Assembly: GCF_003367175.1 (NCBI RefSeq)
Contig: NZ_QRGA01000013.1
Coordinates: forward strand, 32,230-64,229
DNA: 32,000 bases
Source of the DNA: Trinickia dinghuensis
GTDB lineage: Bacteria; Pseudomonadota; Gammaproteobacteria; Burkholderiales; Burkholderiaceae
Direction of reading: 5' to 3'
In this document: positions 8,829-30,421 of the stretch, piece after piece
Position numbering within the stretch: position 1 is the stretch's first letter
Layout of the letters: each line of letters begins with the position of its first letter
The notes under the pieces: model-generated
The model's database searches: none
The model's input: only the letters and a program-made list of their open reading frames with translations
Told to the model about the DNA's origin: nothing
Program-made: the position numbers and the translations under genes

Positions 8829-9185
8829 ATGCGAAAGATGGCGATGGTGATCGGCCTCAGGCCTGAAAAAATCGATGAATACCGGCGTTTGCATGCGAAC
8901 GTCTGGCCGGCGGTGCAGACGCGCATCCGGCAGAGCAACATTCGCAACTATTCGATCTTTCTGCGTGAGCCGGAGAATCTGCTGTTTGCCTATTGGGAAT
9001 ATCACGGCGGCGACTTCGCCGCGGACATGGCGGCAATGGCCGCGGCCCCGGAAACGCAGCGCTGGTGGGCACTGACCGCGCCGTGCCAGATGCGCCTCGC
9101 GAGCGCGCAGGACGGCGAGCAGTGGGCGATGATGGAGCAGGTCTTTGAGTTGGATCCGGACATCATTGATCCGGAAACACGCTAG
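8829..9185 (+). CDS. rhaM: L-rhamnose mutarotase-like protein
   Basis: ATG at 8829 gives 118 aa, MRKMAMVIGLRPEKIDEYRRLHANVWPAVQTRIRQSNIRNYSIFL...LFAYWEYHG. This matches my memory of RhaM/YiiL-type mutarotases. The 157-aa track ORF begins inside the upstream gene. Confidence 0.8.
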   Translation: MRKMAMVIGLRPEKIDEYRRLHANVWPAVQTRIRQSNIRNYSIFLREPENLLFAYWEYHGGDFAADMAAMAAAPETQRWWALTAPCQMRLASAQDGEQWAMMEQVFELDPDIIDPETR

Positions 9186-9253
9186 CGCTGCATTTTCGGG
9201 CGTGTGAGCGGTCATCTTTCGTCTGACTTGAAATCTCGATTTTTGGTTGATAA

Positions 9254-9270
9254 TTCGCGTTATGTCAAAT
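9254..9270 (+). repeat. attL core: TTCGCGTTATGTCAAAT
   Basis: Exact 17-bp direct repeat of 19265-19281. The last 11 nt, TTATGTCAAAT, match the E. coli dif XerD arm TTATGTTAAAT at 10 of 11 positions. The 28-mer 9243-9270 reads TTGGTTGATAA-TTCGCG-TTATGTCAAAT. Confidence 0.8.
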
Positions 9271-9561
9271 ATATTGTCCACGCTGCGCCGTGCGATCCGA
9301 GCAGCCAAGACAGCATTTCGCACGGCACCGCTTCGACCGGCAACAAGCTAGCAAGTCCAGCACCTCACGCCTTGAGACGCCTGCAACGAGCAGGCGTTTT
9401 TTTTGAATCGCGATTTTACGATAGACCCGCCGTCTCCGCGCGTCGTGGACGCCCCGCCGCGTGTTACGGATATGCCAGTAGAGATTGCGTATCTCGCCGA
9501 CAACTCGCGCCAGGTCACCCGCTGACAGCGGCTGACGCTCCCATAGTTCTAACTGCACCAT
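9265..9561 (-). CDS. Hypothetical protein (doubtful; possible small DNA-binding protein)
   Basis: 98-aa ORF. The N-terminal third (MVQLELWERQPLSAGDLARVVGEIRNLYW) looks protein-like and is preceded by AAAACGGGGGC containing an SD. The C-terminal two-thirds is Arg/Cys-rich, runs antisense through a plus-strand terminator, and ends inside the att core. Confidence 0.3.
   Translation of the reverse strand: MVQLELWERQPLSAGDLARVVGEIRNLYWHIRNTRRGVHDARRRRVYRKIAIQKKRLLVAGVSRREVLDLLACCRSKRCRAKCCLGCSDRTAQRGQYI
9377..9404 (+). terminator. Rho-independent terminator
   Basis: Perfect 8-bp stem ACGCCTGC / GCAGGCGT with a 5-nt loop (AACGA), followed by T8. No plus-strand gene lies upstream in the integrated state. 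See the finding on the split repressor gene. Confidence 0.6.
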
Positions 9562-9666
9562 CGAGGCCCCCGTTTTTTATTATTAAGTCATTGTTTACGG
9601 CAAATCACGGAAAACTTGAGACCAAGCGGTCACTGATAGAATCGCCGAAAACAAAACGGGGGCTGA

Positions 9667-9945
9667 ATGAAGACCGTAAACAACGACAGACAACGGGGCA
9701 CACCGACCCCAGCGGACCACCGGCGGCCAATCTGGCGGCATCCTGCCTACCTTGGACTTTGGGAGCACTTGCCATACGGACTACAGATCCGACTCATGGA
9801 AATCGAGGGGCGCCTCGACCGCATCTTTCGGCGACGCCTTAAGGTCCACCGGCGCAGCAGACACGTGCTACAGCGCGCTGTCCTGATCGCGCTGATCGGC
9901 GCAGCGGTCCGCGCAATTATTTACCTCTGGCAGAGGCGCTACTAG
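9667..9945 (+). CDS. Hypothetical small protein with a C-terminal hydrophobic segment (doubtful start)
   Basis: 92-aa ORF with the SD-like AAAACGGGGGC upstream. Only the distal half (MEIEGRLDRIFRRRL...AVLIALIGAAVRAIIYLW) has convincing G/C-third-position coding character. It is the only ORF of 60 aa or more in 9562-10139. Confidence 0.3.
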   Translation: MKTVNNDRQRGTPTPADHRRPIWRHPAYLGLWEHLPYGLQIRLMEIEGRLDRIFRRRLKVHRRSRHVLQRAVLIALIGAAVRAIIYLWQRRY

Positions 9946-10139
9946 GCCACACGCGCCGAAGAAAAGCGGCTTTGCAGTGAGGGGGGCCTTGGCTCGACGC
10001 CCGCAGCAACAGCGAGCGGCGCCGGTAATACCCGCTACTCGGTCCGGGAAGTCGCGCTAAGCCGCGCGACAACCGCTACAACTCCGCCTTTAGGCAGTCG
10101 CGCTACCCCTCTGCGACTACCGCCCGGACACTCCTAACG

Positions 10140-10349
10140 CTAGTCGCTTGACAGCTTGCGCTTCGGATCGATTCCGTTTTCTTTAAGAAGCGTCCTAAGC
10201 CGCTGATTATCGCGATACAACAACAAAACACCTATCACCGTCACGGCCGGAAAGAACCACTTGCCGGAATAGTGGAGAATCGCCCACGCCCCAGCGGCAC
10301 ACACAACGCCCGTTGCGAGCAACGCAATTTTGTCGCCGATCCAATTCAT
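10140..10349 (-). CDS. Small two-TM membrane protein (prophage cargo, partner of the 155-aa ORF)
   Basis: 69 aa with two hydrophobic helices (IALLATGVVCAAGAWAIL, FFPAVTVIGVLLLY) and a basic tail. ATGA overlap with the upstream ORF stop (10346-10349). Confidence 0.6.
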   Translation of the reverse strand: MNWIGDKIALLATGVVCAAGAWAILHYSGKWFFPAVTVIGVLLLYRDNQRLRTLLKENGIDPKRKLSSD

Positions 10350-10813
10350 TTCGCGGCCCCGACCTGTAAAGCGCGCATTGCATACGATCTGCGCGCAGGC
10401 ACGTCTGTTAAGACCTCAGGATGGCGCTGCATAAAAATCTGAATGTCCATTGGAACGACCAAACCGCGACTGGCGATCCAACGACCAACGGCACGATAAC
10501 GAGCCGCAGGAGAGTTCCTATAAGTGTCGCTGCACGCCTTCACTGCCTCGGTCGCCACGATCATGCTCCCGAGCGCCGCACCAACGTAGTAAGACACCGC
10601 CATCGCACCGACAGCACCAAGCTTTTCGAGCGCCGTAGTAGCCCCGATAAGCTCTTTGACCGTGGCATCGGGCCCAAGCGCCTTGAGGGCGCCCAGCATC
10701 GTCGTCATCGTACCCAACGCGGTTTGCAACGAGGAAAACAGGCCCGTCGGCGCATCAAGCCCGAGCGACCGCATGTTGTCGTGAAACGCCTTTGAAAAGG
10801 AAACGCAGTCCAT
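10346..10813 (-). CDS. Hypothetical protein with a Gly/Ala-rich hydrophobic helix (prophage cargo)
   Basis: 155 aa with a central GAVGAMAVSYYVGAALGSMIVA segment. I recognise no family. Translationally coupled to the downstream 69-aa membrane protein. Confidence 0.6.
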   Translation of the reverse strand: MDCVSFSKAFHDNMRSLGLDAPTGLFSSLQTALGTMTTMLGALKALGPDATVKELIGATTALEKLGAVGAMAVSYYVGAALGSMIVATEAVKACSDTYRNSPAARYRAVGRWIASRGLVVPMDIQIFMQRHPEVLTDVPARRSYAMRALQVGAAK

Positions 10814-10888
10814 GTAATAGCTCTCTCAGTAGATTGTTATAGCGTCAGACAGCACGCGAATATTACCAGAGCGGCGACATGCGAATTT

Positions 10889-10931
10889 CCCGTTACGCAT
10901 AACGGGATTTCATTTTTCGTTACGCGTAACG
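10889..10931. repeat. Two CGTTAC/GTAACG palindromes flanking the stop codon of the 169-aa ORF
   Basis: CCCGTTACGCATAACGGG (10889-10906, imperfect only at the centre) and the perfect 14-mer CGTTACGCGTAACG (10918-10931, which encodes the last codons VTRN). Confidence 0.8.
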
Positions 10932-11419
10932 TCGTGCTTAAGCAGCGCCTCAAGGCGACCGTTATCACCGTCATTTTGCCAACCGACCGTCAACAAGTAC
11001 CAAAACAGAAGGATGCTATTCGCGTAGCCACGGCAAAGCATGCTCATGTTCGCCTCACCCTTGCTCGCAGCCTTCGATGCTTCCCCCATCTGGTGTCGAA
11101 TCTCGCGCTCGGCCAGCGCCGTAATCTGCCGATACGACCACTTCTTTCCAACCGGTTCGCGAAAAGCTTGGCGCTGCTCACCCAATTCGCGCCTAGCCTG
11201 GGCCAACTCCTCACGAAGCCGGTCGTTTTCGAGCACAAGATCGTCGTAACCGTCGCCAGCAGCCGGAATATTTTTCGTTACGGTAACGGATTCGCCAGCC
11301 GCTTTACGACGAGCACGGAACGCCGCCTGACGCTGTGCGTTCGTCATGGAACCAGACTTAGGCGGACGACCCCGGCCGCGCTTTTCCGTTACTCCGTCTT
11401 GTAACGCAATTTCTTGCAT
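10910..11419 (-). CDS. Putative DNA-binding/regulatory protein of the prophage
   Basis: 169 aa with an N-terminal basic AT-hook-like KRGRGRPPKSG followed by TNAQRQAAFRARRKA and a coiled-coil-like LENDRLREELAQARRELGEQRQ. It has its own sigma70-like promoter with a palindrome in the spacer. The family is not recognised. Confidence 0.65.
   Translation of the reverse strand: MQEIALQDGVTEKRGRGRPPKSGSMTNAQRQAAFRARRKAAGESVTVTKNIPAAGDGYDDLVLENDRLREELAQARRELGEQRQAFREPVGKKWSYRQITALAEREIRHQMGEASKAASKGEANMSMLCRGYANSILLFWYLLTVGWQNDGDNGRLEALLKHDVTRNEK
11276..11288. repeat. CGTTAC-G-GTAACG palindrome inside the 169-aa ORF
   Basis: CGTTACGGTAACG preceded by TTTT, as at 10914 and 11382. Confidence 0.7.
11387..11406. 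repeat. Spaced inverted repeat CGTTAC-N8-GTAACG over the first codons of the 169-aa ORF
   Basis: CGTTAC (11387-11392), spacer TCCGTCTT, GTAACG (11401-11406). Confidence 0.6.
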
Positions 11420-11449
11420 GGCGCCAATCTCCGCATTGGTAATAAGATT

Positions 11450-11478
11450 ATTTTATGTTACGCGTAACGGAAAATCAA
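11450..11478 (-). promoter_or_regulatory. Sigma70-like promoter for the 169-aa ORF with an operator in the spacer
   Basis: The minus strand reads TTGATT (11478-11473), a 17-nt spacer TTCCGTTACGCGTAACA, then TAAAAT (11455-11450). The spacer contains the perfect palindrome GTTACGCGTAAC. GGAG lies 9 nt before the ATG at 11419. Confidence 0.5.
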
Positions 11479-11497
11479 GTATTTACGTTACGTAACG
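11457..11497. repeat. Two perfect palindromes, GTTACGCGTAAC and CGTTACGTAACG, in the secretin/169-aa ORF intergenic region
   Basis: GTTACGCGTAAC at 11457-11468 and CGTTACGTAACG at 11486-11497. The second abuts the secretin stop codon at 11498-11500. Confidence 0.8.
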
Positions 11498-12844
11498 CTA
11501 AATCTTTTGCACCTGAAGGAGCAGCAAGATTTCCGTCTTGCCCGTGGACACCGTATGGCCGGATGCCCAACGCGGCAGGAACGACAAGCCGGAGTTGGCA
11601 TGCGTCGCTTGATCCTGCGTCAAACCGCCTATAAGCAACACGTCGCCATCGGCCAGGCTGAAAGAGCTTTCAACCTTTCGCGTGTTCTTCGTCGGCGAAT
11701 TGTTCACGCCCGTCGTTGTATTCACGAAGCTACTGATTTCCTCGACGAGGTGCAGGTCGATCGCATCGCGCTTCACAACCGGCTTGACCTGAAAAATCAC
11801 GCCCGCGTCCTCGTACTGGATGCTCTGAACCGGCGCCGCCGTTGAACTGGGGTAGGACACGGAGCCAATCACCGGCACCGACTCCCCGACGTTAAGACTC
11901 GCCGTATCGCCCGACGCAACGCGCAAATTCGGCGAGGTTAGGACCTTGAACCTCGAATCGCTGTTCAGCGCCGACAGCGCAGCACTAAAACCGCCCGCGC
12001 TCAGCCTGATCGCGTTATCGGTTGACTTGATGCTGCCGATGTTCAGCGAAGCCCCTAGACGCCCGCCTAGGATGCTCAACGCGAGTTGAAACGCCGAGTT
12101 GTTATCCGACGTATCCGTCACCTCATACACCCACGCGCGCACCGCGACATTGCTAACCGGCGTGTCGAGCTGCGGCAATAGCTTTTTCAACATCGCCACT
12201 TCACCGGCCGAGCCAACGAACACGAGTTCATCGGCCGACTGATCGACAAGGCTTGCCGCCGACGTCGCGGGCACATCGCTCGCCACCTTGGCACCTTCCG
12301 GCGCCGACACGGGCCGATTCTCGGTAAAGCGGCCGCTGAACAGCGGTCCCACGATGCGCGACAGATAGTCAGCATCCCGATACCTCGGCGAATACACGAA
12401 TGTCTGCCGGTCGCTTTCATCGTTTGCGTGATCCGACTTAGATACGTACGTCACCCCACCGCGAACCGTCACCGAGTAGCCCAGCGACCCCAGGAAATCA
12501 GACAGGAACGAGCGCACGTCACCCTGTGCCTTGTCGAAGCGAAACGACACCGGCCGCGTATCCGTCAACACGTCAGGATCGAGGACATACGGCGCGTGAA
12601 GCAAATCCGCATAGATCAGGTCTACGACTTGTGCGACGGGCACAAAGCGCAGATCGATACGAGAGCCTGTAAAGCGCGGAAGCGCCGACATGATCGGGCG
12701 ATCAGGGGCCTTTGCGACGGGCACGCTCGCCGACGTCTGAACCATCCCCGGAGGAAGCGGAGGAAAACCCGGACTGCCGACCGACATATCCGATGCTCGA
12801 GCAACGCACGACACCCAAAGAAGGAGCAACGCGAACCGTTTCAT
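11498..12844 (-). CDS. Phage-encoded secretin (pIV-like, GspD/PulD family)
   Basis: Start at the internal ATG 12844 (MKRFALLLLWVSCVARA signal peptide), which forms an ATGA overlap with the Zot stop. The C-terminal secretin core reads FKVLTSPNLRVASGDTASLNVGESVPV...IQYEDAGVIFQVKP...VLLIGGLTQDQ. Confidence 0.9.
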   Translation of the reverse strand: MKRFALLLLWVSCVARASDMSVGSPGFPPLPPGMVQTSASVPVAKAPDRPIMSALPRFTGSRIDLRFVPVAQVVDLIYADLLHAPYVLDPDVLTDTRPVSFRFDKAQGDVRSFLSDFLGSLGYSVTVRGGVTYVSKSDHANDESDRQTFVYSPRYRDADYLSRIVGPLFSGRFTENRPVSAPEGAKVASDVPATSAASLVDQSADELVFVGSAGEVAMLKKLLPQLDTPVSNVAVRAWVYEVTDTSDNNSAFQLALSILGGRLGASLNIGSIKSTDNAIRLSAGGFSAALSALNSDSRFKVLTSPNLRVASGDTASLNVGESVPVIGSVSYPSSTAAPVQSIQYEDAGVIFQVKPVVKRDAIDLHLVEEISSFVNTTTGVNNSPTKNTRKVESSFSLADGDVLLIGGLTQDQATHANSGLSFLPRWASGHTVSTGKTEILLLLQVQKI

Positions 12845-22815: not shown

Positions 22816-23023
22816 AGCAGCATGAACGAGATAGCTGAAACACAGTTGAACATCCGCACGAGTACAGCCTGCCGATCACATGATCACAGGCCCGGATGCG
22901 CGGGTGGCGGCCGCCATGATGCCCGACCCGCCAGAGCCGTACATCGACTAGAACTGCACCACGTTGACGCGCAAATAGTGACCGTACAAAATGCGCGGTC
23001 CTTATCTCCGTCTGCGCAATTCC

Positions 23024-23881
23024 ATGGCTGACACCTCTCATGCCCTTCCCGACAACTGCCCCAATTGCGATGCTCCCGTGCATGGGCCTTATTGCGCACA
23101 ATGCGGCCAGGAGACAGTGCATGAACTGCCGACCTTGCGGGAATTTGCGCACGAGTACTTGCATCACTACGTGGCCGCGGACGGCAAGCTCCTGCCCACG
23201 CTGAAGCTGCTGCTGTTCAAGCCCGGGCAGTTGACGCTCGAATATCTGGCCGGCCGGCGGGCGCAGTACGTCAAGCCGCTGTCGATTTACGTCACGTTCA
23301 GCTTTCTGTTTTTTCTTTTCCTGAGCCTGATGGGGTCCATCCAGTCCAGTCCTCTCGTTTACGTCGACAATCGGCCGGTGGCACACCCGGAGCAACACCT
23401 CGCCAAGCTCGCGGCATCCGAAGCCGATCCCGATGACCGGAAAGTGGTCGACGCCATCGCCGGCGTCATGACCGAACTGCAACAGCCCGGCAAATTGGCC
23501 GAGTTCAGCGAACATCTACTGCACCGTCTGCCGTATGCGGTTTTTGCCCTCATGCCGGTTTTCGCGGCGCTGTTTGCGTTCGTCTATCGGAACCGTCACA
23601 AGAACTACGGCGTACATGTGCTGTTTACGTTGCACCTGAACGCGTTCATCTTTGCGGTCTTTCTGCTGTGTTTGATCCCTGCCGTGCGAGCCCATTCCGG
23701 TTGTGCGGCCGCCGCGATCTTCGCCTACCTCGTGGTTGCGCTCAAGCGAGTGCACGAGGGACGATGGTGGCCGCAGCTCGCGCGCGGCTTGCTGCTGGGC
23801 ACTTGCTACGCTTTGCTAAGCGGCATGGTGATCGGTGTCGTCATGATTGCATCGTCAGGCCTGCAATTGCGTCTTCATTGA
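23024..23881 (+). CDS. Zinc-ribbon membrane protein (DUF3667-like)
   Basis: ATG 23024 gives MADTSHALPDNCPNCDAPVHGPYCAQCGQE (a CxxC...CxxC zinc ribbon), followed by several TM helices. The track ORF starts 11 codons earlier. Confidence 0.75.
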   Translation: MADTSHALPDNCPNCDAPVHGPYCAQCGQETVHELPTLREFAHEYLHHYVAADGKLLPTLKLLLFKPGQLTLEYLAGRRAQYVKPLSIYVTFSFLFFLFLSLMGSIQSSPLVYVDNRPVAHPEQHLAKLAASEADPDDRKVVDAIAGVMTELQQPGKLAEFSEHLLHRLPYAVFALMPVFAALFAFVYRNRHKNYGVHVLFTLHLNAFIFAVFLLCLIPAVRAHSGCAAAAIFAYLVVALKRVHEGRWWPQLARGLLLGTCYALLSGMVIGVVMIASSGLQLRLH

Positions 23882-23961: not shown

Positions 23962-24026
23962 GAAACCGGCCTTGGCGCCGCTGTCAGCACATGCGTCTGC
24001 GCGTGGTAGCACGTGTTATATGATGC

Positions 24027-24051
24027 TATAATTGATGCAACTTGGCATCAA
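24027..24051 (+). promoter_or_regulatory. Candidate vapBC promoter -10 element and operator
   Basis: Extended -10 TGCTATAAT (TATAAT at 24027-24032) overlaps the 7-bp inverted repeat TTGATGC (24032-24038) / GCATCAA (24045-24051). This lies just upstream of the GGAG RBS and the vapB ATG at 24064. Confidence 0.4.
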
Positions 24052-24063
24052 GCTGGAGTCGAA

Positions 24064-24270
24064 ATGCGAACCACCGTTACGATCGACGACAACCTCTATG
24101 AGCGCGCGCTTGAGCTTGCCGACCCAGGCATGGACAAAGCCGACCTTTTCCGCGTGGCCATGCAGATGTTTGTTCGGGTTCAGGCCGGTAAGCGTCTGGC
24201 GGCTTTGGGCGGCACCGAGCCCGCTATGTCCGACATCCCCCGGCGCCGGTCGGAGCCTACGGCTCGATGA
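24064..24270 (+). CDS. vapB: Type II antitoxin, VapB family
   Basis: 68 aa from ATG 24064, [19 protein letters not shown]..., a typical VapB-type N-terminus. ATGA overlap with the PIN toxin gene. Confidence 0.85.
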
Positions 24271-24647
24271 GCGTCCTGATCGACACATCCGTCTGGGTTG
24301 ATCATTTCCGTCGCACAAACGCGAGACTTGTCCAACTGCTCACCGGCGACGAGGCGCTCACGCACCCGGTCGTGCTTGTCGAACTCGCCTGCGGCACTCC
24401 TCCTGCGCCCCGGGTACGGACGCTCCACGATATCGCGCTGCTGCAACATGCGACGCACGCGACATGGACCGAGGTGATGGAGTTGATCGAGGCGAGACGA
24501 TTTTACGGTCGCGGCTGTGGCAGCAGCGACCTTACGCTGCTCGCGTCAACCTTGATGACTCCCGGTGCATTACTTTGGACCTCGGACAAACGGCTCGCCC
24601 AGCTCGCCAGTGAATCAGGCGTCGCGTATATGCATGATGTCCACTAG
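24267..24647 (+). CDS. vapC: Type II toxin, PIN-domain ribonuclease VapC
   Basis: 126 aa with [14 protein letters not shown] (first acidic residue), VLVELACG and SSDLTLLAS, the PIN acidic-residue contexts. Confidence 0.9.
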
Positions 24648-24743: not shown

Positions 24744-25523
24744 ATGCAGAACACCACGCCAATTCTCGACCGGATCCTGCTGACGAATGACGACGGATAT
24801 GACGCTCCGGGGTTGGCCGTCCTCGAGAAGGTCGCGGCCACGCTAGCGCGCGAGATCTGGATCGTCGCACCTGCGGAGGACCAGAGCGGCACCTCCCACT
24901 CGATCAGCCTTCATCAACCGCTGAGAGTGCATCGCAAAGGCGAGCGGCGCTTTGCGGTGCGTGGCACACCGGGTGATTGCGTCGCGGTCGCCATCGGCAG
25001 GCTGATGGGTGACAAGCTCCCTGATCTCGTGCTCTCGGGCATCAATCGCGGAGCGAACCTCGGGACGGAAACTGTCTTCTCCGGCACGGTTGGCGCGGCA
25101 ATGACCAGCATGCTGCTGGGCGTTCGTGCGATCGCACTGAGTCAGGCCTTTAAGGATCGCGACGCGGTACCGTGGGAGGCAGCCCTCACGCACGCGCCCA
25201 ACGCGATTCGCCGATTGGTGGCGCAAGGCTGGGACAACGATGCCTGCCTTAACGTCAACTTTCCCGCACGGTCCGCGCAGGACGTCGGCGAACTCAAAGC
25301 TACGAGCCAAGGTGCGGGATTGCTGCAAGGCGTCGAAGTCGTATCGCGGACCGATCCGAGAGATATCGATTACCACTGGCTCAAGCTGAGCAGATCTCGT
25401 CGAGAAGACACCGCGGAATCGGAGACGGTCGCACTGGGCCAAGGTTACGTCACCGTTACACCGCTAAAGTTCGAGCGAACGCATGAAGCCGCTCTCGAGC
25501 AGTTGCGCTTAGGCTTGGCTTAG
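24744..25523 (+). CDS. surE: 5'/3'-nucleotidase SurE
   Basis: 259 aa with the hallmark ILLTNDDGYDAPG N-terminus, SGINRGANLG and YSGTVGAAM-like FSGTVGAAM. GAGGAGG RBS. Confidence 0.9.
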   Translation: MQNTTPILDRILLTNDDGYDAPGLAVLEKVAATLAREIWIVAPAEDQSGTSHSISLHQPLRVHRKGERRFAVRGTPGDCVAVAIGRLMGDKLPDLVLSGINRGANLGTETVFSGTVGAAMTSMLLGVRAIALSQAFKDRDAVPWEAALTHAPNAIRRLVAQGWDNDACLNVNFPARSAQDVGELKATSQGAGLLQGVEVVSRTDPRDIDYHWLKLSRSRREDTAESETVALGQGYVTVTPLKFERTHEAALEQLRLGLA

Positions 25524-25600: not shown

Positions 25601-26458
25601 CTAAGCTATCGCAACCAGCCCCACTTCAAGTGCAAACGGCAGCCACGTCAGCAACTGCGCCCCGATCTCACCCGGCCCCCGCCCGAGTTCGCCGGCCACG
25701 CCGGCGATCAGTTCGCGCACGCCGATCCCCTTTTCCCCCAGCAGGTTCAGGAACGAAAACGACCATGGCTCGAGACGATGCAGCCGCACGCGATAGTGAC
25801 TGCGCGCCACGGCAACGAGCGTGTCCCCCGACGTGGGCGTGCCGAACGGCTGATCGGCCGCCACCGCCGCGATCAGACCGGAAAAATCAAAATCGAGCAG
25901 CAAAAGCCGCAGCGATTCAGGCGCGCGCAACCTCAGTGCGTATAACAAAACGAGATCGAACGAAGCAGGAAACAGCGGACGTTCGCTCCCTTCGACACCG
26001 GGCGCACGCTCCACTTCGGCGAATGCGCGCTCGAGCCGCGCGAGGCTCGCCGGCAGCGCTTCGAGCGTGCCGCGTCCATCGTTGGGCCGCGGTCGAGCCG
26101 CCTCGAGAAAATCGGCGAAGCCCGCGCCCAGATCGAACAGCGTATAGGACGAAGGCGGCTTGGCGCCGAGATACGCGCCGGCAAAGAGATCGAAAACCTG
26201 ATCGCCGACGAAACGCCTCAGCACCGGAAATTCCGCGCGCAGGCATTCGATGAGGCGCATGCGATAGCTGACCACATAGATCTCGAGGCGCTGCCGAGCC
26301 GGCAGTCTTTCCGTGCCGACCACCGCCTGATCGCAATCGATCCCGTATTGGGCCGCCATGCTCAGCGCATCGTCGAGGGTCCAGGACTCTCCCGAAACCA
26401 CATCCTGCATCCAGTGCTGCAGCGTGGCGAGATCGCGTTCGTTCACGTTATCGGTCAA
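25601..26458 (-). CDS. DUF2063-family protein (HvfC/BufC-type MNIO partner)
   Basis: 285 aa, immediately (2 nt) downstream of the DUF692 gene. The N-terminal LATLQHWMQDVV pattern and the overall size fit DUF2063 partner proteins. The track start at 26458 is TTG, and GTG at 26446 is an alternative. Confidence 0.8.
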   Translation of the reverse strand: MTDNVNERDLATLQHWMQDVVSGESWTLDDALSMAAQYGIDCDQAVVGTERLPARQRLEIYVVSYRMRLIECLRAEFPVLRRFVGDQVFDLFAGAYLGAKPPSSYTLFDLGAGFADFLEAARPRPNDGRGTLEALPASLARLERAFAEVERAPGVEGSERPLFPASFDLVLLYALRLRAPESLRLLLLDFDFSGLIAAVAADQPFGTPTSGDTLVAVARSHYRVRLHRLEPWSFSFLNLLGEKGIGVRELIAGVAGELGRGPGEIGAQLLTWLPFALEVGLVAIA

Positions 26459-26460
26459 AG

Positions 26461-27411
26461 TCAGCGGCTCAATTGAAATTCGACCGGCGTGGACAACGCC
26501 CCCGCCGCCACGGGGCGCACGTTGCCGGCGTCAGGCATCGCACCGCTTCTCGCCGCCTTCGCCTTGCCGAGTTCGCCGAGCAACTCGGCAAACGGCGGAA
26601 TGTTCGCGTCCCATTCGAGCAGCGTCGCCACACCCGACGTGCGTGCCTGTGCAAGCGCGTAAAGCGGCCACACGGCGGCCGGCACGGGCTGATCGTGCGT
26701 GTCGACGAGATGCGTGCCGCAATCGCTCGGGCCCGCGAGATGAATCTGCACGATGTTTTCGGCCGGCAACTGCTCGATATAGGCGACGGGATCGAAGCCG
26801 TGATTCGTGGCGCTGACGTAGACGTTGTTGACGTCGAGCAGCAAGCCGCAGCCCGTCGCGTCCGCCAGCCGCGCGAGAAATTCCGACTCCGACATCTGCG
26901 ACGCATGAAACGTCAGATAGCTGCTCGGATTCTCGAGAATCAGCGCGCGCCCGAGATAGTCCTGCACGGCGCGAACGCGATCGGCCACATGCGCCAGACT
27001 TTGCTCGGTCAACGGCATCGGCAGCAGGTCATGCGTATTGCGGCCGTTGACGCCCGTCCAGCAGAGATGATCGGAAATCCAGGCGGGGCGAACGCGCTCG
27101 GCCAATTCGCGAAGCTTGCGCAGATAGTCGCGATCGAGCGGCGCGACACTGCCGATCGACAGCGATACGCCGTGCATGACGATCGGCCGATGCGCCGCAA
27201 TTCGCTCGAGCACATGGGCCGCGTAGCCGTGGTGATCGAGAAAGTTCTCGCTGATGATCTCGAACCAGTCGACGCCCCACTCCGAAGGCGCCGTCGCCAT
27301 CAAATGCGGAAAATGGACGTGCCGTAGCCCGACCCCGTCACCGAGATTCGGCAGACCGAGGCGACAAACCGGTGCGCTTGCCGCCTCGTACGAAACAGCC
27401 TCCACGGTCAC
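26461..27411 (-). CDS. DUF692-family multinuclear non-heme iron oxidative enzyme (MNIO; MbnB/HvfB/BufB-like)
   Basis: 316 aa with [60 protein letters not shown] and VDTHD, the TIM-barrel metal-ligand contexts I recognise from DUF692. The GTG start overlaps the upstream stop (GTGA at 27408-27411). Confidence 0.9.
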
Positions 27412-29702
27412 GTCGACGGCGGCATGGCAATGCGCAGCGGGTTCGCCGGCAGTTCGGGCGGCACTTCCTGCTGTCTTGCCTGCAGCACGCGCTTGTAGGC
27501 CTCGTAGGCGATCTTGTCGATGCGCTCACCCTTCTCGAAGGCGATCGTCGCGTCCGTGCCTTCGAGCGGCACTGCCTGCCAACGCGGTTGAAAGCCGCCG
27601 GTCTTCTTATAGTCGAACAACTGCATCGTGCCGCCGACCGGGAAGCGCTGGGAAGCCGAAATCGGCACGGCACAGCCGCCGAAGCCCTGGCAGCGGTTGT
27701 CGCCGGGCGCGCTGAAGACCGGCAGTGGATTGCAGCCGTTGCCGAACGTACGCGTCTGCAGCGCCGTGCTCGCACTCGTGCTCGTGCTGCAATTGCCGCC
27801 GCCCGAAACTTTCTGCACGAAGCCGCATCCGCCCTGCGCGTTGCATTGATTCGAGCCGCGGCAGCTGTGGAAAACGCCCACCTGGGCGCAATCGTTCGGC
27901 GCCTGCGCGGCACTGAGGTCGAGCCCTTGGCACGCGTGATACAGCGTCTTCGAATTGAGCGGTTCCAGTCCGATCGACAAATCGGGGGCCTTCCCAAAGA
28001 CGGCCCAGCAGATCGCCATGCGATCGCCCGAGCCCACCATCGACGGGAACGGGAACTGCACGGGATTCTGTGCCTGGGCGGCCGCGTTCCAAAAGTCGTC
28101 GAGCACCGTCAGCACGCCCGCGATCGAACCGACCGCGGCTTGGCTCAGCGTCGGGTAATAGCGTGCCGGCTCGGCGCGCAGCGTGTTGAGCGCCTCGGCA
28201 ACCTCATCCGGCGAAGGAATGGGATCGTCGGCCGGACGCACATAATCGGGCTTCTTCAAATCGTTGCCCTGCCAGCCGCAGCCCTCCTTCGACCGTTTGG
28301 CCCACCAGTCGGTCCACGTCCGCACGCCGCCCTGCGCGAACAGATTCCGGATATCCCTGTTGAAGCGCTCGAAGTGATCGGCTTCATCGTGATCGGTACG
28401 CGCCGCCGCATCGGCCGAAGGCACGAGCACGCCGCTATCGTTGAAGCTCGGATAGTCCGATTCGAGCGCAACGGGAGACGGGCGATACTCCTTCTTCACG
28501 GCCTGCAAACCGACCTCTCTCGCACGCTGCAGCAACTGCTGCTTGCGATCGCCGCCTTGCAGCAGCCCATGCGGCTGAGCCGTCAGCTCGGCAAGCACCG
28601 GGAAAGCGTCTTCGGGCAAGATCTCGACGCCGAGCGCATCCTTGAAAACTTCTTGCAGGTTCTCGTAATTGCGCGCCCCGATCTCCCCGCCGAGATGATC
28701 GCTGAGCGCCGTCACGCCCTTTTCCACGCGCACGCGAACCCGCTCTTTGATCGTGCTGCCTTCGCCCTGATCGGTGATGGCGCTCATCATATTGAGCATC
28801 TGCGCTTTGGCGATGTCCTTGTACGTGAGCGCGATCGTCGTCTCGAAGCCCATGAACTCGCGCATCGGATGGCCCGAGCCCGAGAAGTTGTTGAACAGGT
28901 CGTTCTGCTGCCCGTTGGGATTGAACACGCTGTCCCACAACGTCGAGCCGTCCTCGTAGACCACGTTCACATACTTGCTGTAACACTGGTACATCCAGCC
29001 GATCGACCCGAATTGCGGCAGCGGCTCGCCCGCCTCCCAGGGGCCGCGCGCACCGCCCGGCTTCCAAATATCGTCGAACGGGGCGGTCGGGAAATACTCG
29101 GCGCGGTACGGTTCGAGCACGTCCGCGCGCGCGTCGGCGTCGTCCCGCTCGATCGCGCAGAAGAGCCAGAGTTTCTCTTCATTGAGCGCGCCGACGTCGA
29201 CGTCGGCCGCCAGCCCCTGCTCCCTGCGCTCCTGATAGCTTTGCGTATGGGCCAGATCGATGATGTTCGGAATGCGCGTCTTGCCGTGGCCGAAGCATTT
29301 CCATGCATGCGTTTCCGGATCGACGAGCGAGCACGTGCTGTATTTCGGCGGCGAATTCGGATCGCTGACGGCCGTCGCCATATTCGAGGCGAGCTGCAGA
29401 TGCAGCATTTCGTCGATGAAGACGGAAAAGAGAATATTGAACGCCTGCTCTTCGTTGTTCGCGGGCGTGCGCACCGGCTTCGCGCCGGGCCACAGGCGGC
29501 CCTTGTAGAAATCGAGATTCTTTCCTGTAATGGCATGCATGCCGTAAATCGAATACAGGCTCGTCATATACAGCGGAATCGTGAAAAGCTCAACCTCGAG
29601 CGCGGCTTGGGCAATGGCCCGCAGGGCGGCGATGTCGGTTTCCTTATGGGCGGGATTCCGCTTGACTGTTACGGTTCCGTGACTGCTTTCGATGCTTTCC
29701 AT
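27408..29702 (-). CDS. Large ferritin-like-domain protein with a C-terminal Cys-rich bufferin/HvfA-like block
   Basis: ATG 29702 with AGGAGA 6 nt upstream gives 764 aa. Ferritin-like helices: [51 protein letters not shown]. No signal peptide is visible. The C-terminal block contains [17 protein letters not shown] and [12 protein letters not shown]. The 774-aa track ORF adds 10 Arg-rich codons upstream. Confidence 0.85.
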
Positions 29703-30061
29703 GCGTGGTCTCCTACGTATCGGCGAGCGCATGGGAATGTCGTTCGCCGGCTGTGGGGGGGAAGCGGCTGCTGAACAAGCCGTCTTTTTTTATCAAAACA
29801 GGCCGAACGACGAGCAACGGGAGCAGACCGGCTCTGCTGCGCCGGTCTTACGTCTGATGAAACATACGGTAGCCATATCGGCGTGTCAAGCGGTGGGATG
29901 CACCCTCCGCTAGGTGGGCTTCCGCCAAATTCGCCTTGGGCGATGACGCTGCGAAGCAACCGCCGACCCCGATGTTGCGTAGTGTTGCGCTTGCCCCATG
30001 TCGGGTATGATCAGCCGATCTGCCGACAATCAATAATTAACGAAAAGAGGACGACACACGT

Positions 30062-30421
30062 ATGGAAAATCACGTTCTTCAAGATGGCGCACCCGCTTCT
30101 TCCTCGCCTGTCGTTCGCGTCTCGCTGGCGAACTTCGACCCGGCTCGATTTACCGAAGTCAATCAAATGGCGGAGGACATTGGGGAGTATTTGATTCCCG
30201 CGATCAAGAAACTTCCGGGCCTCATTCATTACTATGCTGCTTGCTCCCCCAAGGGCTCCATGATCCACGTAAGCATTTGGGATACCGACGAGCACGCGCA
30301 GCAAATGAGCCACCTGAAAGAAATGATCGTCGATGCGAAAAACGATGCGGAGAAGGTAGGGGTCGTATTTACTCCCATCGTTCACTACCCTACCAATTGG
30401 AAGATTATTATTCCGCAATAG
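30062..30421 (+). CDS. Small ABM/Dabb-fold-like protein (antibiotic-biosynthesis-monooxygenase-like), lower G+C
   Basis: 119 aa. VRVSLANFDPARF...LPGLIHYYAACSPKGSMIHVSIWDTDEHAQQM resembles ABM-domain proteins. Many A/T-ending codons contrast with the neighbouring genes. Confidence 0.5.
   Translation: MENHVLQDGAPASSSPVVRVSLANFDPARFTEVNQMAEDIGEYLIPAIKKLPGLIHYYAACSPKGSMIHVSIWDTDEHAQQMSHLKEMIVDAKNDAEKVGVVFTPIVHYPTNWKIIIPQ

Follow-up and report, generated by a model that had tools for sequence, protein, structure and literature searches.

Enzymes of the MNIO (DUF692) family act together with partner proteins in tens of thousands of loci, and in the current view the chief products of these pairs are copper-binding peptides for export. 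BufB-type MNIOs and their DUF2063 partners turn cysteines into copper-binding 5-thiooxazoles (PMC11626156), and MNIO-PME1 pairs broadly install 5-thiooxazoles on the cysteines of three groups of precursors (10.1101/2025.11.18.689057). Partners with the DUF2063 signature (PME-type 1) accompany precursors with Sec signals (PMC12452194). The same study reported that MNIOs are chemically diverse, some acting on C-terminal residues, and described signal-less candidate substrates such as the TIGR04222 and 'adjamnio' families as well as bufferin-domain chimaeras, e.g. MerC|Buf (PMC12452194). Here, a three-gene operon from Trinickia dinghuensis was analyzed, which lies on the minus strand within positions 25601-29702 of a 32-kb stretch of DNA (the window) and encodes a 764-amino-acid (aa) fusion of a ferritin-like domain and a Cys-rich module, an MNIO and a DUF2063 partner. 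Comparison of the encoded proteins and of related loci suggests that the MNIO and its partner form metal-binding heterocycles on cysteines of a protein that is retained in the cytoplasm, a reading to which we assign a probability of about 0.58.

The operon shares several features with those of the bufferins or captophorins (BufA1 of the DUF2282 family, BufA2, and the oxazolin/fontiphorin group with EGKCG repeats). In both, a BufB-equivalog MNIO is combined with a partner of the DUF2063 signature, the genes are ordered substrate-MNIO-partner, and the actual or putative substrate is rich in cysteines and displays HxC(K/R)G and GGC motifs like those of the 'Cys-Lys' group. However, the 764-aa protein has no Sec signal peptide, is much longer than the bufferin peptides of ~60-120 aa and falls outside all three precursor families; DoxX, sigma and anti-sigma genes do not accompany it. 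A ferritin-like component is attached or co-encoded, and the product is presumably cytoplasmic, whereas bufferins are periplasmic. The bufferin chimaeras Buf1|Cytochrom_C|FGE-sulfatase, MerC|Buf1 and MerC|Buf2 (Antoine et al., 2025) resemble the protein in the fusion of an MNIO-substrate domain to a larger, metal-linked protein. These chimaeras carry recognised Buf1 or Buf2 domains, while the fused domain of the window belongs to a distinct family and is paired with the ferritin-like domain PF12902.

Neither ferritin nor PF12902 is mentioned in the text or the examined supplements of PMC12452194, and nothing relevant to a link between MNIO/DUF692 and ferritin-like proteins was found in the literature searched, which included later MNIO papers and had most subscription journals outside its coverage. 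The initial annotation of this DNA had regarded the architecture as previously undescribed, which agrees with the literature as far as the link between MNIO and ferritin-like protein is concerned; signal-less Cys-rich neighbours of MNIOs, however, had already been noted (PMC12452194). The enzymes, the signal-less Cys-rich neighbours and probably the chemistry are already known. What appears new is the ferritin-like link and fusion, a putative substrate that is protein-sized, cytoplasmic and leaderless, and an exception to the rule connecting partner type and signal peptide.

Gene trio and its conservation

The three genes are tightly packed, and rereading of the sequence reproduced the packing, start site and spacings that the initial annotation had described. 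The large gene (27408..29702, minus strand; open reading frame (ORF) 27408-29732) begins with an ATG at 29702, preceded at a spacing of 6 nt by the ribosome-binding site AGGAGA (29709..29714, minus strand), which was read directly from the sequence. Use of the in-frame ATG upstream at 29732 would contribute just 10 polar residues, MRSPIRRRPR. The TGA of the large gene (27410-27408) shares bases with the GTG start (27411-27409) of the MNIO gene (26461..27411, minus strand; 316 aa) in a GTGA overlap, and 2 nt lie between the MNIO stop codon (26463-26461) and the TTG start at 26458 of the DUF2063 partner gene (25601..26458, minus strand; 285 aa). The predicted 764-aa product is 100% identical to the NCBI Trinickia dinghuensis protein P0001, annotated as 'ferritin-like domain-containing protein'.

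Profile scans upheld the assignment of the two downstream genes to a DUF692-DUF2063 pair by matches to PF05114, NF050167 and PF09836. The MNIO matched PF05114 with an E-value of 2e-104 and the MNIO_BufB equivalog NF050167 with 352.5 bits (curated cut-off 310), and its scores against the HvfB, ApyH, MbnB and ChrH models were all under the respective cut-offs. It also matched the PDB entry 3bww (E 2e-47), and a set of His, Asp and Glu residues was invariant among 103 MNIO orthologues. At the motif LLEWDANIP (aa ~264-272), the residue after the Asp of EWD is Ala, Ser or Gly in the MNIOs of this system, and Glu in actinobacterial loci; a preprint gives Phe or Asp in other groups for a specificity position that presumably corresponds to it. 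The partner matched PF09836 (DUF2063; E 4e-18, 65.8 bits, cut-off 27.2), as did all 20 of the 20 orthologous partners, and by this Pfam signature it is a partner of PME-type 1. The match of the partner to NGO1945_C (PF22106) was weak (19 bits, cut-off 27) and was found in four of the 20 orthologues.

At least 684 homologues of the large protein, about 650-770 aa in length, were detected. When one genome per species was scanned, relatives were found in 355 stretches; the fused form occurs in at least 355 species. The best 80 loci, which were examined, came from Alpha-, Beta- and Gammaproteobacteria (Pseudomonadota), Bacteroidota, Acidobacteriota, Myxococcota and Ignavibacteria. An MNIO gene and then a DUF2063 gene followed directly 3' of the large gene in 80 of 80 loci with sufficient downstream DNA, which is far beyond chance; the sole exceptions were two contigs that ended too early. 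Orthologues of the ferritin-like gene without MNIO and DUF2063 neighbours were sought among these 80 loci and none was found. The MNIOs of the examined loci were 55-95% identical to that of the window, and the order of the trio was also displayed by two Caulobacter loci and by a distant 576-aa relative.

A fourth conserved neighbour such as DoxX, a regulator or an exporter was not detected, as no family appeared in more than ~13 loci by crude ORF clustering. The larger gaps that some relatives have between the first two genes contained no hidden small precursor ORF. Given the conserved order, the lack of a shared fourth family and the empty gaps, the genes form a self-contained three-gene module. 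The initial annotation had likewise noted neither a DoxX gene nor a small precursor ORF, and scans of the flanks and of the 32-kb window agreed with it. No DoxX, sigma or anti-sigma factor was encoded among the genes flanking the operon, no small Cys-rich precursor ORF was present in the window, and the sole frame of the window with bufferin-like Cys motifs was the large ORF itself. A separate small Cys-rich precursor gene beside the operon was also sought in close relatives and was absent from them.

The Cys-rich module and its free-standing relatives

The proposed MNIO substrate is a Cys-rich module at aa 585-690 of the large protein (27633..27950, minus strand), delimited by conservation and by homology to free-standing proteins. 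It contains the motifs H589xC591Q, C605A, H612xC614xGSNxC620xxxGGC626GF and NxC671xxxGGC677AVPISxxQ. The conservation of these C-terminal cysteines was checked in 76 members, which represent all phyla: Cys 591, 614, 620, 626, 671 and 677 were conserved in 99-100%, Cys 605 in 92%, Cys 638 in 89% and Cys 657 in 76%. The general pattern HxC(R/K)G..N.C..GGC resembles the 'Cys-Lys' 5-mers of 10.1101/2025.11.18.689057.

In an AlphaFold2 model of the 764-aa protein (mean predicted local distance difference test score (pLDDT) 82, predicted template modelling score 0.85), for which an alignment of 70 sequences was used as input, the whole protein was confidently folded except for the Cys stretch. Residues 12 to ~575 formed a confident helical body, and aa ~585-680 had no confident fold (pLDDT 34-64; block means 44-64). 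A deeper run, for which fused and free forms were aligned together, likewise gave no confident fold for this stretch. The remainder is a small C-terminal beta/alpha domain (aa 681-764; 27411..27632, minus strand; pLDDT 78-88) carrying a conserved helix and an invariant PPST tail, for which a fold search returned no PDB neighbour. In the free-standing family, a single part besides the cysteines is conserved, and it is with this part that the helix and tail align; the domain is therefore a candidate site for docking of the partner.

When 1.84 billion representative proteins were searched with a profile of the module, 139 matches were obtained, nearly all of them from its own family or fragments thereof. 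In the weak tail of this search were ferritin-like/Cys fusions of 490-576 aa and the small free-standing proteins P0255, P0244 and P0256. The genes right after P0244 and P0255 encode MNIOs 66% and 58% identical to the window MNIO, and the MNIOs directly after free-standing Cys proteins overall showed 57-66% identity to it. A profile built from the free-standing proteins aligned with the window module over 114 columns (hhalign 99.4%, E 8.5e-22). The same profile found at least 1,457 small proteins of ~124-220 aa, whose best-scoring organism-labelled matches were from Actinomycetota; among the matches listed, the proteins were annotated as 'hypothetical protein' at most and none had a Pfam domain.

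The free-standing proteins contain 8-13 cysteines and no signal peptide. Almost nothing precedes their first Cys motif, as in MAILELHACQGL and MPLHVC, and they therefore appear to be made without an N-terminal leader. Their only conserved part besides the cysteines is a C-terminal helix, VWxxARxxFExRM, which aligns with a helix of the window protein. When the fused and free forms were aligned jointly, seven Cys proved to be shared, as were two His at position -2 (HxC). The C-terminal tail differs in actinobacterial members; the Cys motifs are retained there. In their description, the free-standing relatives are similar to adjamnio-I (Antoine et al., 2025, Table 2), which is signal-less, 122-293 aa long, has 8-21 Cys and precedes an MNIO, the corresponding values here being 124-220 aa and 8-13 Cys. 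However, the partners reported for adjamnio-I are of PME-type 2 and its description includes no ferritin-like gene, whereas the free-standing relatives have partners of the DUF2063 signature and are followed by a PF12902 gene. The two may be the same family, although they were compared by description only.

Three arrangements of the genes were observed. The window and all examined genome loci encode a ferritin-like/Cys fusion followed by MNIO and DUF2063. In five of five Actinomycetota loci, including those of Kitasatospora, Actinomadura, Streptomyces and an Acidimicrobiia metagenome-assembled genome, a Cys protein is followed by MNIO, DUF2063 and a separate PF12902 gene (383-435 aa), the coding regions overlapping. 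Between the actinobacterial MNIO and that of the window, identity is 59%, and the actinobacterial ferritin-like protein keeps the motifs of the window protein. In the third arrangement (loci L097, L100-102, L108, L110 and L111), the Cys protein is followed by MNIO and DUF2063 and no ferritin-like gene was found within 6 kb by hidden Markov model search.

Comparison of these loci shows that the 764-aa protein corresponds to a fusion of a predicted precursor and an accessory protein, which are encoded by separate genes in other lineages, and that what remains constant in the system is a core of Cys module, MNIO and DUF2063 partner in this order. Since this core occurs in some loci without a ferritin-like gene, the ferritin-like protein appears to be a frequent accessory, present as a fusion in the lineage of the window. 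The occurrence of fused and split forms argues that the ferritin-like and Cys components work together physically. The initial annotation had offered two readings, a protein-sized, possibly cytoplasmic substrate in a fusion and a ferritin-like oxidase recruited into an MNIO pathway. The free-standing module homologues and the split Actinomycetota gene support both, as two sides of one system.

Short ferritin-like/Cys fusions were also present in metagenome loci. One ORF at L095:4942-7107 encodes a ferritin-like domain with two tandem Cys modules, and at L087:4467-6453 a fusion of 496 aa is accompanied by an additional, free-standing copy of the module (150 aa), located before the MNIO. Extra copies are common among precursors, and these were therefore counted in favour of a precursor role of the module. 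At L086:6424-6853, frame-shifted remnants of an MNIO lie between the genes for the Cys protein and DUF2063, and this copy of the system seems to be decaying. Two further genes precede ferritin-less systems (L108:3566-5864 and also L086:3485-5782). The first encodes a conserved protein of 190-202 aa (…MPLGGPYWSQDN.DLFQQW…) and the second a protein of 539-551 aa whose N-terminus includes a hydrophobic stretch and which carries a haem-binding CxxCH motif; both may serve as accessory proteins in place of the ferritin-like one.

The N-terminal part of the large protein matched the ferritin-like family PF12902 at aa 32-317 (28752..29609, minus strand) with 48.5 bits (Pfam cut-off 22.3), and the large protein had no match in NCBIfam. 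The only relative in the PDB is 3hl1 (hmmsearch E 9e-10; Foldseek E 1.4e-6), the uncharacterised 317-aa 'ferritin like protein' CC_0557 of Caulobacter. It shares with the 764-aa protein the N-terminal domain and, together with other PF12902 proteins, the motifs ELxTIPxY, EMLHxQ and DQGEG, but has no Cys module. PF12902 also matches part of VioB, weakly. Invariant in the domain are E38 (VELFTIPLY), E98 and H101 (EMLHLQ), E185, E282 and DQGEG at 311-315, which suggests a metal site. The second half-site has no classical ExxH, and E185, E282, D311 and E314 are conserved there instead. The initial annotation had seen a ferritin-like N-terminus of the di-iron type; the PF12902 match supports the ferritin-like assignment, while the di-iron type is reduced to the conserved Glu, ExxH and acidic pattern. 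As only half of the classical di-iron pattern is present, 'di-iron' remains an unproven label for the PF12902 domain here.

Between this domain and the Cys module lie an insertion of ~85 aa restricted to Burkholderiaceae (aa ~318-400; 28503..28751, minus strand), recognised from the alignment and modelled with a pLDDT of 57-72, and a conserved helical middle region (aa ~401-575; 27978..28502, minus strand; pLDDT mostly 82-96) without a family match. The insertion explains the length of 764 aa here compared with ~670 aa elsewhere. As stated in the initial annotation, the protein has no signal peptide: neither a hydrophobic N-terminal segment nor a transmembrane segment was detected by hydropathy, the top 19-aa Kyte-Doolittle window being 1.42. 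Hydrophobicity peaks in helix 1 of the ferritin-like domain, and in 72 of 76 members no more than 70 aa precede the start of the ferritin-like motif.

Proposed modification and alternative explanations

The published chemistry of BufB and of MNIO-PME1 pairs, taken with the 'Cys-Lys'-like motifs of the module, leads us to propose that docking is followed by thiooxazole formation. The partner would recognise the substrate by docking on its folded C-terminal helix and its tail; docking at the C-terminus is proposed because the free-standing homologues offer no N-terminal leader. The BufB-type MNIO, using iron and O2, would then convert some of the seven conserved cysteines in the flexible stretch of aa 585-680 to 5-thiooxazoles. 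A thiophilic metal, most likely Cu(I), could be bound by these heterocycles together with the two invariant His at position -2 (HxC). In the resulting intracellular product, a metal-binding module would be joined to a ferritin-like domain, itself probably dependent on metal, which might cooperate with the Cys-derived site inside the cell in metal oxidation, in storage or, as speculatively, in another redox role. It is quite probable that the MNIO has the Cys module as its substrate, and the thiooxazole chemistry, the copper and the specific role of the ferritin-like domain are held with less confidence than this.

If so, the family would show the MNIO-partner machinery acting on a full-size protein retained in the cell. 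It would break the reported rule that pairs DUF2063-type partners with Sec-signal precursors and would point to substrate recognition without an N-terminal leader. It would also give a first functional handle on the uncharacterised PF12902 family, namely a conserved genetic partner, present as a fusion or in the same transcript. With three or four genes the system is compact; it is also widespread and could easily be tested by co-expression.

Several observations weigh against heterocycle formation on a cytoplasmic protein. PME-type 1 partners have been tied to precursors with Sec signals (PMC12452194), and the family of the window has no such signals; MNIOs as a group carry out several other chemistries. 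The C-terminal 178 aa matched nothing in Pfam or NCBIfam at E <= 10, and membership of the C-terminus in the DUF2282, BufA2, HvfA or EGKCG families was rejected as none of the models matched. A faint likeness to BufA2 was seen on one short relative alone (17 bits, cut-off 60), and the exhaustive search with the module profile reached only its own family and never the bufferins. The length of the partner (285 aa) suits a complete partner protein, its C-terminal domain of the RiPP recognition element type (RiPP: peptide made on ribosomes and modified after translation) was weakly detected, and neither its single sequence nor its profile matched an entry of the PDB. The low AlphaFold2 confidence in the Cys stretch could reflect a missing metal cluster and not a flexible substrate. 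The function of the ferritin-like domain and the identity of the metal are guesses, PF12902 having no characterised member save for the weak VioB link.

The modified module might instead be the product of a true RiPP pathway, cut off and released as a peptide after the ferritin-like domain has acted as an in-cis tailoring oxidase. The ferritin-like gene comes last in the Actinomycetota operon, as tailoring enzymes do, it is missing from some systems, and its sequence is conserved in an enzyme-like manner. However, in 82 loci no protease or exporter is conserved beside the module, which is itself followed by a conserved, well-folded domain ending in an invariant tail, and there is no signal peptide, so that release as a peptide appears unlikely. 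The fused and split arrangements point to physical association of the two components and would also suit cofactor biogenesis, in which catalysis is the task of the ferritin-like protein, and the MNIO and its partner supply it with a Cys-derived metal-binding cofactor, built on a fused domain or a separate subunit. Strong conservation of the ferritin-like domain and the cytoplasmic location are in agreement with this, but PF12902 is without known activity and systems of Cys module, MNIO and partner exist that have no ferritin-like gene within 6 kb; we consider such a pathway quite improbable. A related possibility is that MNIO-partner pairs act in this system as cytoplasmic maturases, and not in the production of a secreted metallophore, and that heterocycles on a leaderless, C-terminally recognised module serve as the built-in metal cofactor of a PF12902 metalloenzyme. 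The module would then be fused to the enzyme in Proteobacteria, Bacteroidota and other phyla and would be a separate subunit in Actinomycetota. This is a tentative proposal, which we regard as rather unlikely.

The Cys stretch could finally remain unmodified and simply bind Zn or an Fe-S cluster within a ferritin-like enzyme, with the MNIO and its partner acting elsewhere, e.g. on the PPST tail or on an unlinked substrate. MNIO chemistry is diverse and includes reactions on C-terminal residues (PMC12452194), the PPST tail is invariant, and AlphaFold2 cannot model metal clusters, so its low confidence in the Cys stretch proves little. Yet the MNIO scores as a BufB equivalog and not as another subtype, the Cys module alone always fills the precursor slot, and the tail varies in actinobacterial members while the Cys motifs persist. 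An unmodified site is considered very improbable, and formation of heterocycles on the cysteines of the retained protein is the reading preferred here.

Surroundings of the operon

A promoter-like site, TTGACA-17 nt-TATGTT (29861..29889, minus strand), is located ~160 nt upstream of the start of the large gene. It was identified by consensus match only (10 of 12 positions), and with two such sites in the region against 0.9 expected it is weak evidence for a promoter. An Rfam search upstream of the operon for riboswitches and small RNAs gave no family match. A plus-strand ORF of 800 aa (27372-29774), which runs across the whole large gene, was rejected as a high-GC shadow ORF without homology support.

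The neighbours of the operon are genes for an amino-acid permease, a 119-aa ORF, SurE, a VapBC pair and a DUF3667 protein. The 119-aa ORF (30062-30421, plus strand) lies between the promoter region of the operon and the permease gene and has no Pfam match. Downstream of the operon, SurE (24744-25523) separates it from a VapB/VapC (PIN) toxin-antitoxin pair (24013-24647, plus strand), and the DUF3667 gene (22991-23881) is located just beyond this pair. In another part of the window, at 9000-12000, the G+C content is ~0.57 compared with 0.61-0.65 elsewhere and the sign of the GC skew switches, and this stretch may be foreign DNA.

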